DNA from: a virus
Lineage: Duplodnaviria > Heunggongvirae > Uroviricota > Caudoviricetes
Virus record (IMG/VR): IMGVR_UViG_2648501437_000004
Direction: 5' to 3' (one strand)
DNA: 35,403 nucleotides
Below the pieces are notes generated by a model. The model was not told the DNA's origin. It ran no database searches and saw only the letters and a program-made list of their open reading frames with translations. Position numbers and translations under genes: made by a program. Positions 1-4,674 of the stretch are shown piece by piece (the first letter of the stretch is position 1; each line of letters starts with the position of its first letter).

Positions 1-398
1 CCAGAGCCGCGCCACTGATGCAGTCACTGTATGACTGGATACAGCAACAGATGAAAACACTGTCGCGTCACTCAGATACGGCAAAAGCGTTCGCATACCT
101 GCTGAAACAGTGGGATGCACTGAACGTGTACTGCAGTAATGGCTGGGTGGAAATCGACAACAACATCGCAGAGAACGCCTTACGGGGAGTGGCCGTAGGC
201 CGGAAAAACTGGATGTTCGCGGGTTCCGACAGCGGTGGTGAACATGCGGCGGTGTTGTACTCGCTGATCGGCACATGCCGTCTGAACAATGTGGAGCCAG
301 AAAAGTGGCTGCGTTACGTCATTGAACATATCCAGGACTGGCCGGCAAACCGGGTACGCGATCTGTTGCCCTGGAAAGTTGATCTGAGCTCTCAGTAA
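1..398 (+). CDS. IS66-family transposase (TnpC-like), C-terminal portion, 5'-partial
   Basis: Translation ...[59 protein letters not shown]... matches the conserved IS66 transposase C-terminal region; the frame is open to the window start. Confidence 0.85.
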
Positions 399-428
399 AT
401 ATCAATACGGTTCTGACGAGTCGCTTAC
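1..428 (+). mobile_element. IS66-family insertion sequence, right-end fragment (continues upstream of window)
   Basis: Transposase ORF ends at 398. 421-428 tcgcttac is the reverse complement of GTAAGCGA, matching the GTAAGCG terminus recalled for IS66-family inverted repeats. Exact end and target-site duplication not verifiable here. Confidence 0.6.
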
Positions 429-463
429 GGTATTTAAATGACATAGGGTTTTTATTCCCAAAT

Positions 464-486
464 AAAAAACCCCGCGATGCAGGGTT
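464..486 (-). terminator. Putative intrinsic terminator downstream of the TIR-like gene
   Basis: Minus-strand RNA has a short GC-containing hairpin (aaccc / gggtt around loop tgcatcgcg) followed by UUUUUAUUU. Stem is short, so weak. Confidence 0.35.
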
Positions 487-507
487 GTAATCAACAATAA
501 GGGGTAA

Positions 508-1269
508 TTACGAGGAAGCGTTAGCTATTTGAGCTTGTGTAAATTCGAAACCAGAATTTTGTAACCGTTGCACTAGACGAGGAACTGTTTCACGTACATG
601 GTCGTTGAAATTCAGATACAAAATCCCGTTAGCATCAGAAGGCTGTTCTAGGTGCTGTTTCTGAAGGATTGCTACATTGCTGCGCCCTAAGGACGAAAGA
701 AGCATACCCATCTCGAGTACAACGTTCTGTCTTGCGCGGGGTTGGATTTCTGCTTCACCGGCGCGCTTTGAGTATCCCATATCATCAGGTGTCAAAAGAA
801 CAATCCCGAAACGGGTAGCAGTTTGTCCTTGCCCAATTTCACGTTCAAGCTCTTCAATAATGGTGAGTCCAGTCCCTCCCGTATTCTGCAAAATGAAATG
901 GTCTGGTAATCCAAGTTTATGAAGGATTAGCTCAAGTTGCTCCTTTGCAGTATGGTCATGGCCGTGAACAATGAATATCTTTTTGGGGAGCTCAGATGGC
1001 TGTTCTACGGCTAGTGGTGTTGCCGTGGGCGGCGTTCCTAAATGGGTCATTATTGCAGTTTCAACATTGGGACGTTCTTGAGGGTTACCTTGAAACTGAA
1101 TGGTCCGGGTGGTGTAAAGGTTAACAATTACGCCATTCGTTAAACGATAGCAGTCACAAGTCTCACGCTGTTCGTGGGAAAAATTGGTGAACCCACACTC
1201 CCTCAAAAAGTCAGGAAAAGTTTCTCTCGAGTATGGATAGGTGATCGGCATTTCAGTTAGTTCCTGCAT
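508..1269 (-). CDS. TIR-like domain protein (COG4271/PF10137-type predicted nucleotide-binding TIR-like domain) with an unknown ~90-aa N-terminal domain
   Basis: ATG at 1267-1269 with AAAGGA Shine-Dalgarno. C-terminal half KIFIVHGHDHTAKEQLELILHKLGLPDHFILQ...TIIEELE...FGIVLLTPDDMG matches the FIVHGHD...VLLTPDD signature recalled for this TIR-like family. GC is visibly lower than the adjacent polymerase gene. Confidence 0.55.
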   Translation of the reverse strand: MQELTEMPITYPYSRETFPDFLRECGFTNFSHEQRETCDCYRLTNGVIVNLYTTRTIQFQGNPQERPNVETAIMTHLGTPPTATPLAVEQPSELPKKIFIVHGHDHTAKEQLELILHKLGLPDHFILQNTGGTGLTIIEELEREIGQGQTATRFGIVLLTPDDMGYSKRAGEAEIQPRARQNVVLEMGMLLSSLGRSNVAILQKQHLEQPSDANGILYLNFNDHVRETVPRLVQRLQNSGFEFTQAQIANASS

Positions 1270-1333
1270 AAGTATTGTTCCTTTAATTTACTCGAATTCA
1301 GCATGTCGCCATAGCTCGATAAGGTGAGTTATA

Positions 1334-3397
1334 TCAATCTTTTTTGTAGTGGTACGCCTCAAAACCGCCAGCGTTCAGTAGGATATCGGGCGCCCATTCG
1401 GGGTCAGTGGAGAGAAGCGCGGAAAGCGCTTTATCGTTGAAATCTTCTGTGTCAGGTGCTTCGGTGATCACCTCGTCGTGTACCGTCAGCACAATGCTGT
1501 AACCGGCATCTTCGATAAGCGGCATGTTTCCGGCCAGAATGTCGCGGGCGGCCGCCTGGGTGATGTTCTCCACCAGCTTTCCGCCGTAGGTTTTGAGTCG
1601 TTGCCATTTACGCGAATAAGAGTTAACCCCCATGTAGGTGATATTCCCTTTTTCGATAACCGGAGACGGGTAGCATACAGCGCGTCCGGATGGTAGCTGT
1701 ATGCGCAGCCACGCGCCATCGCGGCGGATTTTAAGATAACCGCAATACAATGTTTTTTGCGGTGTGGCGATTGCAGTGCGGACGGTGCGCTCCAGTTCGT
1801 ACCAGAAATCACAGGTCGCGGGATGCGCCCGGCGCCAGAGACGTTTAAGTGAGTCGCAGGCGATAAATACCCGTTCAGAAAGCCCGTAGGTTGACTTGCG
1901 TTTAACCGATTCGTCGTACCAGCTTTTCGCCTCGCGGATAACATCGCGGGGAATGTTTGGTAGTGCGGCGTTCGCCAGCTCGTCGAGATCGAGACCGTAA
2001 ACCAGTGCAAAAGTGATGAAGGCCGACACACCACCACCATAACCCAGACCGAGTTCCATGACTTTACCGATCTGACGCATGTGTTTATCAACATCATCTG
2101 GTGCAATATCGAAAGCTTTTGCATACGCCAGTTTATATAAGTCCGGACCCGTTCCGGCGTCGTACTCTCTGAATGCATTCAGTTTCCATTCTTCTCCCGC
2201 CAGCCATGCCAGCATACGGCCTTCAATGTTCGACAAGTCACTTACCACCAGCTTTTTGCCTGTTGGCGCGATAATGCAGCCACGTAACGCTGAACTGGTT
2301 AGTTCCATGATATTGTCAAACAGCAGGTCTGCACATCCGGCTTTCAGTGCTTCGATGCCTTCGTCTATTTGTTCCTGTTTTAGTGAAGGGCGGGGAAGGT
2401 TCTGGGGCTGGAATAGCCGTCCGGCCCAACGACCGGTACGTGACGCCCCGCAGAACTGTAGCGTACCGCGTAAGCGCCCGTCGTGGCTTACGCCTTTCAT
2501 CAGTGCCTTGTATTTACTGGTGCTGGTAGTACTGGCCTGCAGGCGGATAGCCAGCAGTTCTTTCACGGCAGATGGTAAATCGGGGTCGGCAATACGACGT
2601 TCCAGAGTACTGCGTTGCATGTCTGGTAGCTCCACACCGTAGGATTCAACAATGTGCTTAATCAACGCGTCTCGTTGTGTGGCTGCCTGCACTTCGCCAT
2701 CAGTCATTTCCTGTGTACGCTTTGCCAGGCGCTTTTGCTCCTGGTCTACCGCTTCGATCGCAGCGCGCGCGAGTTGAATGTCCATGCAGACGCCCCGGTC
2801 GTTGATCTGCTGATCACGATGCCAGAGCGCCAGTTCTGTCCCCTGATAATTCCACTTCGGCAGACGTTTATAGACTTCGCGCATTGCCTCGATATCCAGT
2901 CCGGCGTAAGCAACAAAGCGCCGCCATTCTTCCGGGTGGGTTTTACTGGTGGCCCGACGCAGTTTGCTGTTTTTCGGGCGTGGCTTACAGAACAGCTGGA
3001 TCAGCGCTTTACCTTCTTTGTCCTTCGCTTTGTCTTGCGGGACGCCGAGTATTTCGCAGAGTTCCCCCAGAGACCCCGGGAGGCCGTGCGCCAGCGCCTG
3101 CACCATTGTGTCGCGCCAACGTTCGACTGGCGGTGCCAGGCGCGGCATTGCATAACGCAGAACGGTGCGGTCGAAGTGAGAGTTATGGAAATAAAGCAGG
3201 GTTTCAGGGTCTGCGATTGCTTCGTATAAGCCGTGTGGAATACCACCACCGGCAGTGATATCCCACACGTTTACTGGCCCGTCGTTGATAGCCCATGCGA
3301 AAAGCATCACTTCAACGCCTTCGGCATACGCATGGGTACCGTTCGTAATAGGGATTTCGCAATAGGTTTCCAGGTCGCCCCATAGTATATTGGACAT
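1334..3397 (-). CDS. Family A DNA polymerase (Pol I-like, phage type) with N-terminal 3'-5' exonuclease-like region
   Basis: 687 aa, ATG at 3395-3397 with AAGG Shine-Dalgarno. Motif A-like [21 protein letters not shown], motif B-like [16 protein letters not shown], motif C-like VHDE. Confidence 0.85.
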
Positions 3398-3443
3398 GTG
3401 TTTACCTTGGTTTTTATTCTATTAACTGATTAAAAGATTAATT

Positions 3444-4073
3444 ATGCATATGATCCAATACTTGATTGACCATACAGAGCATCTGGAGAAAATAGCTGGA
3501 TATATTTTTTCATGTTTGATTGTTATGGGAGTCTGGATAAGAAAGATTATTTTTAATTATAAGTATAAAGAGCCTAAATATGTTAAGAAGTTAATTTTAT
3601 ATTTAGTTAAGTATGAACGTTATCTGGATGAGGAGGATAAGAGTGCCATAGAAAAAAGAATAAATGATAAAATTATTCGTGATGCGCTGAAATTGCAATC
3701 ATCTTATAACCGAAGAGATGTTATTTACATTTGCAATAGATTAGAAAAAAGACAGTATATAAATCAGTTGATTAAGCTTCAGAATTATATAGAGAAAGAT
3801 AACGGAGTGTTTTTTATTAATGTTGATTTTTCAGGTTTTTTATTTATTATTAGTCGTCTGTTTTCCTTTCTGTGTTTTGTGCTGTTTACCCTTTTTTCTA
3901 TTATCTGCATTATTTCCATAGGGCAAAATGAAGGCCTTTTAAATTATCTTGTGTATATGGTTATGATAATAGTTTTAGAGACTGTTGGTTTTTGGATGTA
4001 TGATACTTTCCCGTCTAAGAAAAAGATCTGTGAACTAAATAAAGAATTGAGAAAGATTAAGATTCCTGAGTGA
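3444..4073 (+). CDS. AT-rich hypothetical membrane protein (accessory/moron gene)
   Basis: 209-aa ORF opposite to the flanking operon. GC roughly 25-35% by hand count versus about 50-55% around it. Hydrophobic segments IAGYIFSCLIVMGVWI, FLFIISRLFSFLCFVLFTLFSIICIISIG and LVYMVMIIVLETVGFWMY; Lys/Glu-rich soluble middle. Confidence 0.7.
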   Translation: MHMIQYLIDHTEHLEKIAGYIFSCLIVMGVWIRKIIFNYKYKEPKYVKKLILYLVKYERYLDEEDKSAIEKRINDKIIRDALKLQSSYNRRDVIYICNRLEKRQYINQLIKLQNYIEKDNGVFFINVDFSGFLFIISRLFSFLCFVLFTLFSIICIISIGQNEGLLNYLVYMVMIIVLETVGFWMYDTFPSKKKICELNKELRKIKIPE

Positions 4074-4125
4074 TTATACGCCTAATCAGTAGCCCGGTGT
4101 TTAACCGGGCGTCTATGAAGTAGGG

Positions 4126-4674
4126 TTAAATTAGTGCTTCAGCATCAGCACCTTCGCTGATATCGTCGAAATCGTCAGCGCTTGCCACTCCGCCGCCAGC
4201 GAGTGCATCGCCGTCTCGCAGGAACTGGACTCCGCCGAGTGAGGCATTAATGCGTTTACCGAAATTATTGTCCTGTGCCCAGATATCGATAACGGCGTTT
4301 ACATAGCACCCTGCATAGGGACGTCCGTCAGCCTGAATAAGTGGCGAACGATCGCGATCAAGAACAGCTGGGCGCGCTTTGTTAGCAGCATTCAGGAAGA
4401 AATTACCGGGGAAGCCTTCATACTCTGCTTTTTCATCACCATCATGCAGGCACAGATTGAGTTTTTTCTCCAGCTGGTTATAAATGGGCTCCCACTTCTC
4501 TCCCCATTTTTCCTTCGCTACCTGCTTCATAGCTTTACGGATTTCTTCCAGTTGTGGGTGTTTGGGAGACATTAAAAATACTGCGGAGAAACGCGGATCG
4601 CCTTCGCCGTTTACAGTTTTAGCTTCAAACAGAGACGGGAAGGCCAGACGAACATTGTTCAGCTTCAGTTTCAT
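4126..4674 (-). CDS. DUF2815-type phage protein (predicted ssDNA-binding, SSB-like) with acidic C-terminal tail
   Basis: N-terminus MKLKLNNVRLAFPSLFE typical of DUF2815 as recalled; lies in a DUF2800/DUF2815/PolA replication module; acidic C-terminus ADDFDDISEGADAEALI. Confidence 0.7.
   Translation of the reverse strand: MKLKLNNVRLAFPSLFEAKTVNGEGDPRFSAVFLMSPKHPQLEEIRKAMKQVAKEKWGEKWEPIYNQLEKKLNLCLHDGDEKAEYEGFPGNFFLNAANKARPAVLDRDRSPLIQADGRPYAGCYVNAVIDIWAQDNNFGKRINASLGGVQFLRDGDALAGGGVASADDFDDISEGADAEALI

Follow-up and report, generated by a model that had tools for sequence, protein, structure and literature searches.

Organization of the locus

The window analysed here (the whole stretch of 35,403 nucleotides) belongs to a temperate myophage of E. 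coli that has integrated at yfhL, and it carries, in the early replication region of this phage, a gene for a protein that joins an N-terminal TBP-like domain to a C-terminal TIR domain. The following features lie at this locus:

1 to 428, plus strand: end of an IS66-family element, with the transposase C-terminus at 18 to 398 (DDE_Tnp_IS66, IS66_C) and a terminal repeat ending at about 428
455 to 507, minus strand: intrinsic-terminator-like hairpin and T-run (stem 486 to 468), 22 nt past the stop codon, part of the cassette
508 to 1,269, minus strand: complete gene of the TBP-like/TIR protein (open reading frame with ATG start, 253 aa; PADLOC PDC-S35, phrog_16442)
511 to 981, minus strand: C-terminal PF10137 (CAP12/Pycsar-type) TIR domain, aa 97-253, with R180, N182, E186 and D212
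991 to 1,032, minus strand: variable linker, predicted to be disordered, aa 80-93 (pLDDT <50), differing in length and sequence across the alignment
1,039 to 1,245, minus strand: N-terminal TBP-like domain, putative sensor, aa 9-77
1,270 to 1,333, minus strand: 64-nt spacer between the PolA stop codon and the TIR gene start, containing AAAGGAA as a Shine-Dalgarno-like sequence; the cassette is bounded here on its upstream side

A preliminary description made from the letters of the DNA had placed a TIR-like gene at positions 508 to 1,269, and we indeed find a complete reading frame of 253 codons with an ATG start there on the minus strand. Its remark that the gene is lower in GC than the adjacent polymerase gene (45.5% versus 54.2%, with 50.0% for the window) is likewise borne out, and the neighbour that it called an IS66 remnant is recognized by Pfam as the C-terminus of an IS66-family transposase. 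The leftward replication operon does not, as had been proposed, end with this gene: In intact prophages (E. coli IAI1, phage vB_EcoM-689R2), the operon goes on with genes for an ANR regulator, a VRR-NUC protein, an SNF2/DEAD helicase, an HTH protein, and the integrase, and it is the IS66 insertion that truncates it here. The element sits in the ANR regulator gene, the usual next gene after the TIR cassette, which is cut after ca. 5 codons by the element's end at about 428, as seen at the junction in the alignment; homology of the window to intact prophages begins at 428. The IS66-family element is not part of the TIR system; as the window begins inside it, it may or may not be a remnant.

Homology to prophages lacking the TIR gene ends within the last 12 nt of polA on one side of the cassette, and the terminator hairpin on the other (found by terminator scan; folding energy -13.4 kcal/mol) is missing wherever the TIR gene is missing, while a divergent allele in E. 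coli L6-21 keeps the hairpin and T-run with another stem sequence (z = -5.4). Among related prophages, the slot is empty, filled by another small gene, or occupied by a 71%-identical allele. The polymerase is found in 159 E. coli genomes, of which only 37 to 57 have the TIR gene and more than 100 do not, so that the phage can do without it. From these comparisons of sequences, we regard the TIR gene with its own terminator as accessory cargo in the form of a moron-like cassette. A scan of the minus strand from 350 to 4200 at consensus thresholds yielded no sigma70-like promoter, and inspection of the spacer by eye gives weak promoter candidates only. If the cassette has no promoter, it may depend for its transcription on the lytic early operon, and a function in the life cycle of the phage itself would then be a better fit than one in protecting the lysogen.

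Membership in a catalogued defence candidate family

E. coli genomes as well as three temperate phages have copies with 98% to 99.9% identity, annotated as "TIR domain-containing protein", and the protein (WP_001157067) is present in ca. 1% of E. coli genomes. The PADLOC model of PDC-S35 (PDLC05003; PADLOC-DB v2.0.0) matches aa 10-253 with profile positions 3-245 of 245 (E=4.3e-109), and phrog_16442 is matched over the whole protein. By this full-length profile match, the gene belongs to PDC-S35, a family already catalogued as a single-gene "phage defence candidate". PDC-S35 is itself a bioinformatic candidate, and its entry comes with no mechanism, N-domain assignment, or link to RNase HI. 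In the literature that we searched for PDC-S35, COG4271, and PF10137, we found no experiments on TIR proteins of the PDC-S35 type, no functional study of a TBP-like/TIR architecture, and no mention of PDC-S35. Single-gene TIR NADases of prophages are a known kind of system, and the presence of such a gene is in itself no surprise.

The family spans at least 237 species-representative genomes in more than ten phyla. Homologues stand alone in varied surroundings: integrative and conjugative elements (ICEs), type I R-M operons, an integrase islet that also holds Mrr and PemK, an integron-like cassette array, a T4SS element, an island with DUF4062, RT, and toxin-antitoxin genes, and other prophages. 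It had been considered that orthologues might uniformly be part of the phage replication module, yet a PolA/DUF2800 replication module surrounds the gene at only 1 of 80 species-level loci. Enterobacterial relatives do recur in this module (E. coli, Serratia, and Salmonella, where the gene occupies a different slot of the same module), a Liberibacter locus has PolA and DUF2800 genes nearby, and the neighbouring slots of related prophages hold nucleotide-modification genes (Nmad5, DUF4406, methyltransferases). Two distant homologues have a small open reading frame (70-86 aa) upstream, which we weighed as a partner and dismissed, as it is absent from the window and does not recur in the neighbour clustering of 79 loci.

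The C-terminal TIR domain

The preliminary description had recognized FIVHGHD and VLLTPDD motifs and associated them with PF10137, for which it suggested a Pfam profile search. Both motifs are present, with FIVHGHD (aa 99-105) and LLTPDD (aa 158-163) invariant in 113 family members. The PF10137 profile aligns with aa 97-222 from its position 1 to position 118 of 119 (E=2.9e-31) and scores 108.4 bits, above the curated gathering cut-off of 24.7. At E<=1, Pfam returned this family and a weak RnlA_toxin match and nothing else; in particular, neither PF05014 nor related deoxyribosyltransferase or LOG families were found at this threshold, and on this ground we reject the nucleoside deoxyribosyltransferase alternative that had been named earlier.

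The domain adopts a flavodoxin-like fold nearest to Cap12, though the TIR half of the full-length model is of moderate confidence only (pLDDT 52-87), and Cap12 NADases are its nearest relatives in both structure and sequence. Alignment to the TIR-STING protein SfSTING, in which E84 is the catalytic glutamate, R78 and N80 line the NAD+ pocket, and D110 is the trans-acting aspartate of the DD loop (PMC9402430), pairs E84, R78, N80, and D110 in this order with E186, R180, N182, and D212 of the TIR protein, all kept in 112 to 113 of 113 homologues. The catalytic glutamate, whose location had been named as a point to check, thus corresponds to E186 in helix C and the trans-acting aspartate to D212 in the DD loop. 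By analogy with SfSTING, the C-terminal domain is probably an NAD+ glycohydrolase.

No sign of a cyclase

The earlier statement that no cyclase or other signalling partner lies in the window agrees with our search, as none of the 39 other open reading frames matches a PADLOC defence gene at E<=1e-5. Contexts outside the window do not change this picture: No cyclase is annotated in the intact IAI1 prophage, none was seen in ca. 15 sampled contexts of homologues, and no cyclase-like family figures among the recurrent neighbours of 79 loci. The NCBIfam Cap12 equivalogs reach only 34.8 and 30.5 bits versus a cut-off of 450, and they cover just the TIR core, as do the partial matches of PADLOC models for CBASS and Pycsar TIR effectors (E 1e-8 to 1e-12).

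Taken with the full-length match to PDC-S35 and the varied stand-alone contexts of the family, the absence of a cyclase points to single-gene defence. Of the two roles offered previously, a self-contained NAD-depleting abortive-infection protein therefore fits, given the retained active-site residues, the PDC-S35 match, and the stand-alone homologues. The other, a CBASS or Pycsar effector with partners outside the window, finds no support, given a cyclase-free intact prophage, Cap12 scores of 30-35 bits against 450, and an N-terminal domain of TBP-like fold.

A TBP-like N-terminal domain related to RNase H3 and RnlA

The N-terminal part had been described as a ca. 90-aa domain of unknown function. 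It is indeed a separate domain, of ca. 80 aa, but its fold can now be recognized with confidence as TBP-like, with the topology beta-alpha-beta4-alpha. This assignment is new in our analysis. The TBP-like domain is the only domain besides TIR: STING, SAVED, and cNMP-binding domains are absent. Its nearest folds are the hybrid-binding N-domain of RNase H3 and RnlA. In sequence, the window protein stays below the curated cut-off of PF15935 (RnlA_toxin), with 13.4-16 bits versus 27, and a profile search of PDB gives E values of 0.07 for entry 3vn5 and 0.21 for LsoA. Across the family, PF15935 matches 9 of 28 members (best E 8.9e-5), DUF3378 (PF11858) gives sub-threshold matches to 4 of 28 (best E 0.004), and one homologue (P0113) has a precomputed PF15935 match.

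The N-domain diverges fast (median identity 26%) around a conserved motif, Y52-x-T54-x-T56-x3-Q60-G61. Y52, T54, T56, and G61 are spaced identically to the hybrid-contact residues Tyr43, Ser45, Ser47, and Gly52 of Ta-RNase H3, an equivalence that comes from alignment of the motifs and not from a printed superposition. All of 113 sequences have an aromatic residue at position 52; T or S stands at position 54 in 101 of them and at position 56 in 108, and G stands at position 61 in 111. The best-conserved positions of the N-domain are the counterparts of nucleic-acid contacts in RNase H3. The motif written as a regular expression hits 55 of 80 loci, which is a rough lower bound affected by the choice of start codon and to which we give no weight. 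The same N-domain is also fused to other C-termini, among them a dCTP-deaminase defence enzyme of PADLOC (E=7e-173) and a polytopic membrane protein.

A coupled RNase HI gene at some loci

Among the 79 loci, each neighbour family is present at 10 at most, and the most frequent one, adjacent in 9, is RNase HI. In all nine, the RNase HI gene lies downstream and overlaps or abuts the stop codon of the TIR gene, i.e., the two are translationally coupled, and the encoded RNase HI is intact (PF00075, E=2e-43). These nine loci come from three or more phyla and ca. 8 unrelated contexts. The RNase HI gene is missing from the other 70 loci and from the E. coli locus, where the best tblastn match in the window has an E of 0.09. 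RNase HI is known to bind the NRD of RnlA and to control this toxin, which makes the TIR-RNase HI gene pairs a parallel to RnlA. A candidate RNase HI gene beside the dCTP-deaminase fusion (L109) was rejected, as the start of the overlapping downstream reading frame is unlike RNase HI; the membrane-protein fusion lies on short contigs.

Proposed mechanism

We think it probable, if well short of certain, that the TIR protein is an NADase acting on its own in abortive infection, with a sensor for RNA/DNA hybrids or RNase HI. A single polypeptide carried as prophage cargo would then make up the whole abortive-infection system and, if expressed in the lysogen, defend it. Judging from homology to TIR-STING/Cap12, the TIR domain would be the effector, an NAD+ glycohydrolase with no activity as a lone unit. 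Its activation would be driven by oligomerization, with TIR-TIR packing bringing D212 of one subunit to complete the E186 active site of the next, and the resulting depletion of NAD+ would stop growth of the infected cell. The N-domain might bind RNA/DNA hybrids arising from phage replication or transcription, or monitor RNase HI as the NRD of RnlA does, and several copies bound side by side could then allow the TIR domains to pack. This idea of the trigger builds on the kinship to RNase H3, the retained contact residues, the re-use of the N-domain, and the coupled RNase HI genes, and we infer the sensing step from these. Weighing against the proposed mechanism are the lack of an RNase HI gene at the E. 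coli locus and at 70 of 79 loci, the portal and tail-fibre triggers of comparable E. coli systems (see below), the moderate confidence of the TIR half of the model, and the promoter scan that gave none for the cassette.

What is gained is a concrete and testable idea of the trigger for this TIR family. If it is right, bacterial immunity would directly sense RNA/DNA hybrids or the status of RNase HI as a pattern associated with phages, the family would be mechanistically tied to the puzzle of RnlA and RNase HI, and it would be among the few one-protein TIR systems with an understood input.

Alternative explanations

The trigger might instead be a phage protein such as a portal or tail fibre recognized by the N-domain, and the gene could then be one of the known systems TIR-V, TIR-VI, or TIR-IX. 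These single-protein systems of E. coli (PMC11350192) resemble the TIR protein in host and in the combination of a short C-terminal TIR with a distinct N-terminus; they have superimposable TIRs and dissimilar N-termini, give an abortive-infection phenotype that needs the TIR active site, and respond to portal (TIR-V, TIR-IX) and tail-fibre (TIR-VI) proteins, not to nucleic acid. With the protein in ca. 1% of E. coli genomes, it probably falls into a cluster tested there, and a median identity of 26% is what one would expect of a protein-recognizing sensor in an arms race. We nevertheless judge a phage-protein trigger unlikely, because the N-domain positions conserved best match nucleic-acid contacts of RNase H3, RNase HI is translationally coupled in 9 of 79 loci, and a sensor kept from E. 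coli to Chloroflexota and Acidobacteriota would hardly be the reader of one structural protein. As a side observation, the TIR protein may equal one of the 20 candidates that were inactive when tested in that study. More improbable still is a role in lytic growth, with expression from the early operon, be it as a weapon against co-infecting phages or satellites, as a counter-defence enzyme, or as a replication-linked factor acting on hybrids or primers. The gene follows polA in the same orientation after 64 nt, with no promoter-like site called, and both its recurrence in enterobacterial replication modules and the nucleotide-modification genes in neighbouring slots would agree with such a role. 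Against this, 79 of 80 species-level loci lie outside such a module, the phage can evidently spare the gene (see above), the family has the kind of neighbours that defence islands typically have (type I R-M, toxin-antitoxin, Mrr), and a known defence effector carries the same N-domain.

Two further readings seem very improbable to us, and to about the same degree. One is an orphan CBASS or Pycsar effector, in which a cyclic (oligo)nucleotide from a cyclase encoded elsewhere in the host genome would switch on the TIR domain. The TIR domains of Cap12 and PycTIR belong to PF10137, the partial PADLOC matches are of this kind, and stand-alone CBASS effectors with other signals have been proposed (bioRxiv 10.1101/2025.06.19.660554), but the protein has no domain that would be expected to bind such a signal (STING, SAVED, or cNMP-binding), its Cap12 scores stay confined to the TIR core, and cyclases are absent from all contexts surveyed, from the window to the recurrent neighbours. 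The systems in question, i.e., CBASS Cap12 (TIR-STING; SfSTING, PDB 7un8/9lmq), TIR-SAVED, and Pycsar PycTIR, also have the opposite domain order, whereas here the sensor is N-terminal, the TIR domain C-terminal, and the sensor TBP-like in place of STING, SAVED, or cNMP-binding; the cyclase gene that lies adjacent in Cap12 and PycTIR systems has no counterpart here, and the protein falls more than 400 bits short of the Cap12 equivalog cut-off. The other reading is that the domain is not an NADase and acts as another N-glycosidase or nucleotide-processing enzyme (kin of nucleoside 2-deoxyribosyltransferase, MilB, or LOG), or as a signal-producing TIR with an unknown effector. It is opposed by the lack of matches to deoxyribosyltransferase or LOG families, by the nearness of Cap12 NADases, by the retention of the NAD+ pocket residues (R78 and N80 in SfSTING numbering) along with the trans-acting D110, and by neighbour clustering of 79 loci that yields no conserved effector partner.

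A sensor module shared among effectors?

Beyond a self-contained NADase with a hybrid or RNase HI sensor, we tentatively raise a broader and rather doubtful idea, namely that the N-domain is a widespread, undescribed immune sensor module for RNA/DNA hybrids, a signature of phage replication, or a guard of RNase HI. It would be swapped among TIR (NAD+), deaminase (dCTP), membrane-disrupting, and HEPN effectors (RnlA/LsoA), with a dedicated RNase HI serving as off-switch in some lineages. If true, such an interchangeable sensor would account for the fact, long a puzzle, that RnlA depends on RNase HI, and it would constitute a new bacterial nucleic-acid pattern receptor.

The relatives of the N-domain differ in what it is attached to. 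In RNase H3, the N-terminal substrate-binding domain (DUF3378; PDB 4py5, 3vn5), which shares fold and contact positions with the TIR protein, precedes an RNase H2-like catalytic domain rather than a TIR domain, and hybrid binding in the TIR protein is putative. RnlA and LsoA, the toxins of the E. coli anti-phage toxin-antitoxin systems RnlAB and LsoAB, resemble the TIR protein in having homologous TBP-like domains N-terminal to a toxic effector. [quoted passage not shown] Some members of the anti-phage dCTP deaminase (PADLOC "dCTPase", PDLC02373), i.e., P0246 and the fragments P0181 and P0229, carry the same N-domain in place of their usual N-terminus, so that the putative sensor module is common to two metabolite-depleting effectors, one that depletes dCTP and one predicted to deplete NAD+.

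Prophage setting and accessory nature of the TIR gene

The window is an E. coli temperate myophage integrated at yfhL, as in strain IAI1, and its left end carries the following features:

1-444 region, IS66-family element end (transposase C-terminus, 18..398; terminal repeat up to ~428) and first ~5 codons of the ANR gene
486..468, minus strand, hairpin with T-run after the TIR stop codon
508..1269, minus strand, TIR gene (ATG start, 253 aa)
1334..3397, family-A DNA polymerase gene (PolA), adjoining the TIR gene

Both the TIR open reading frame and its lower GC content (45.5%) compared to the polymerase neighbor (54.2%; window 50.0%) agree with the preliminary description. In intact copies, the leftward early operon comprises DUF2800 nuclease, Enc34-type SSB (DUF2815), PolA, TIR, ANR, a small gene, VRR-NUC, SNF2/DEAD helicase, HTH, and integrase genes, so the TIR gene, which had been placed at the operon's end, is followed by an ANR-family regulator gene in intact prophages. 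The window start falls inside the IS66-family element, whose terminal repeat interrupts this regulator gene after ~5 codons (ANR start codon at ~444, minus strand) and whose insertion separates the early operon from VRR-NUC, helicase, and integrase. The IS66/ANR junction is absent from all 25 best E. coli matches.

The phage carries the TIR gene as accessory cargo. While the polymerase is found at ≥95% identity in 159 of 5,426 complete E. coli genomes, only 37 of these 159 match the TIR query over nearly its full length, and 57 match it in any part. In TIR-less O111:H11 strain 8D, the polA stop codon directly joins the ANR ribosome-binding site; in the likewise TIR-less Ecol_542, a 67-aa gene occupies the slot, and L6-21 carries a 71%-identical TIR allele there. 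The Serratia TIR gene sits in the same slot as in the window, that of a Salmonella relative in another variable slot of this module, and three sequenced phages (vB_EcoM-689R2, 611R5, and 606R2) encode the protein with 98% identity. A divergent TIR allele keeps the hairpin with a different stem sequence, and prophages that lack the TIR gene also lack the hairpin.

A widespread family of stand-alone TIR proteins

The FIVHGHD and LLTPDD motifs from which a TIR-like domain had been proposed are present and invariant across the family, and aa 97-222 match the whole PF10137 profile (CAP12/Pycsar effector TIR domain; 108.4 bits, cut-off 24.7); no nucleoside-deoxyribosyltransferase-type family in Pfam matches the window protein at E≤1. 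Together with the equivalents of the catalytic Glu (E186) and the trans-acting Asp (D212) in an alignment to TIR-STING (Cap12), this supports without proving that the TIR domain is an NADase requiring TIR-TIR packing for activity, and a non-NADase chemistry appears unlikely. The suspicion that the gene might be an orphan CBASS/Pycsar effector fared less well. As had been described, the window holds no cyclase or other partner (none of its 39 other open reading frames matches a PADLOC model at E≤1e-5), the intact IAI1 prophage, which extends beyond the site of the IS66 copy, has no annotated cyclase either, and the NCBIfam Cap12 equivalog models reach 30-35 bits, where 450 are required, with the match confined to the TIR core. 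An orphan effector is therefore unsupported and unlikely.

PADLOC candidate PDC-S35 matches the whole protein including its N-terminal domain (E=4.3e-109), as does phrog_16442. The same architecture recurs in >2,700 homologs of ~250 aa, and at least 237 species-representative genomes, spread over many phyla, encode a member. The contexts sampled include a Vibrio cholerae ICE, an integrase islet with Mrr nuclease and PemK, a T4SS element, and an islet in which two TIR_2 genes immediately precede the TIR homolog (locus L026). At a Vreelandella locus that is a dense defense island (L015, 8863-11622), a DUF4062 gene, a small open reading frame, and a reverse transcriptase gene come after the homolog, and ParDE and YoeB/Phd pairs lie close by; DUF4062 proteins are named TIR-like NADases of the "Swarozyc" defense system in a 2026 preprint. 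In Vibrio parahaemolyticus (L023-L025), homolog P0119 lies in a long one-strand array of short genes with acetyltransferase and LysE genes that looks like a chromosomal integron cassette array. Type I R-M operons also occur among 79 loci (HsdM in 5, HsdS in 4, HsdR in 4), with an R-M subunit gene 0-9 nt from the TIR gene in three of them. Immediately 3' of the TIR homolog, two unrelated loci encode a SEC-C-motif protein (PF02810; L012, 8781-9743; L026, 5877-8222).

The N-terminal domain and its partners

Modeled alone, aa 9-77 form a beta-alpha-beta4-alpha unit with high confidence (pLDDT 87.5). Profile searches against the PDB point weakly in the same direction as this fold (3vn5, E 0.07; LsoA NRD, E 0.21), and Pfam returned RnlA_toxin for 9 and DUF3378 for 4 of 28 members, all under the curated cut-offs. 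The N-domain of T. ammonificans RNase H3 alone binds only RNA/DNA hybrids, through stacking of Tyr43 on a deoxyribose and contacts from Ser45 and Ser47 to a DNA phosphate and from the Gly52 amide to an RNA 2'-OH (PMC4132731). The window protein has identically spaced Y52, T54, T56, and G61. Among 113 homologs, position 52 is always aromatic, 54 is T/S in 101, 56 is T/S in 108, Q60 never varies, and 111 keep G61, although median identity is just 26% for the N-domain compared to 70% for the TIR domain.

An N-domain-only profile retrieved 835 proteins, TIR proteins among them, out of 1.84 billion representatives. The domain is fused to a known anti-phage dCTP deaminase in P0246 (PADLOC dCTPase, E=7e-173; Pfam dCMP_cyt_deam_1; P0181 and P0229 are fragments of such fusions), to a polytopic membrane protein in P0242, and to an unknown 200-aa domain in P0245, and also occurs in tandem copies. 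Recurrent proteins of 150-165 aa (P0157, P0170, P0182, P0192, P0193, P0220, P0226, P0244, and P0254) join it to a conserved C-terminal domain of ~75 aa (consensus LLKRVK.AL...GLTV..V.DS...V......D.YCSLVQ.GSEIYIRKL). Attachment of a small N-terminal module to growth-arresting effectors of different kinds typically marks a defense sensor. At its locus (L109, 1576-5809), the P0246 gene lies directly 3' of a DEAD/Helicase_C/MZB helicase gene, and its stop codon is overlapped by another gene that is cut by the contig end and whose start is unlike RNase HI.

Clustering the neighbors of the 79 loci revealed no universal partner. The commonest neighbor is a full-length RNase HI (PF00075, E=2.2e-43) with intact catalytic D-E-D-D, whose gene directly follows the TIR gene in the same orientation in 9 of the 79 loci, with TIR stop and RNase HI start overlapping or abutting (TGATG or TAATG). 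The nine loci belong to Verrucomicrobiota, Dehalococcoidia, and Vicinamibacterales and, one pair apart, have unrelated flanking genes; between lineages, their RNase HI copies show 45-87% identity. Since RNase HI genes are normally single-copy, the pairing is far from chance and, together with the re-use of the N-domain, provides two independent comparative lines. It recalls E. coli RnlA, whose second TBP-like domain (NRD) is bound by RNase HI, which is needed for RnlA activation and stimulates RnlA activity (PMC5308261). The window encodes no RNase HI, so any such role in E. coli would fall to host rnhA.

Proposed mechanism and alternatives

From the domains, conserved residues, cargo behavior, stand-alone state, N-domain re-use, and RNase HI pairing, we infer that the N-domain may bind RNA/DNA hybrids accumulating during phage replication or transcription, or monitor RNase HI. 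Copies clustered on the ligand would have their TIR domains brought into contact, with D212 completing the E186 site of a neighboring subunit, and hydrolysis of NAD+ would arrest the infected cell; in two-gene variants, RNase HI may keep the system off by removing the ligand. That the gene is a self-contained TIR NADase carried as abortive-infection cargo seems reasonably probable to us, while the specific hybrid or RNase HI sensing step is a tentative proposal.

The main rival is a different trigger: the protein may be one of the portal- or tail-fiber-triggered single-protein TIR systems surveyed by Wang et al. (PMC11350192), or be among the 20 candidates without activity. A role in the phage's own lytic cycle is possible given that the gene sits in the early operon and that no sigma70-like promoter was found for it on the minus strand from 350 to 4200, but it agrees poorly with the gene being dispensable and with PolA and DUF2800 homologs lying nearby in only 1 of 80 species-level loci. 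Orthologs are thus not uniformly part of a phage replication module, the arrangement that the preliminary description had set against a defense function.

The gene in itself is ordinary, since its candidate family is already catalogued and its kind, one-protein TIR defense on a prophage, is known. In the searchable literature, neither the RNase H3/RnlA TBP-like class of the N-domain, nor its sharing between TIR and dCTP-deaminase defense enzymes, nor the coupled RNase HI gene has been described, and the main value of the finding lies in a sharp and cheap experimental hypothesis.

Other variable slots of the replication module

Between the PolA and SSB genes, and antisense to them, lies a 209-aa open reading frame (3444-4073, plus strand) of 28.7% GC (window 50%) with three hydrophobic segments. 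A match is given by phrog_10579 (unknown function), while hits in Pfam, PADLOC, and NCBIfam are all at chance level, far below curated cut-offs. Elsewhere, this slot holds a DUF4145 gene (Serratia), a hypothetical gene and Nmad5 (other E. coli), or the TIR gene (Salmonella), and the open reading frame is probably a second, membrane-protein moron. In intact prophage relatives, a third variable slot between VRR-NUC and SNF2/DEAD helicase (L001, 10555-11352; L018, 4496-5083; L019, 3470-4815; L020, 3988-4632) contains unrelated plus-strand hypothetical genes or a DNA cytosine methyltransferase, which, with the two PolA-flanking slots, makes the replication module a hotspot for cargo.
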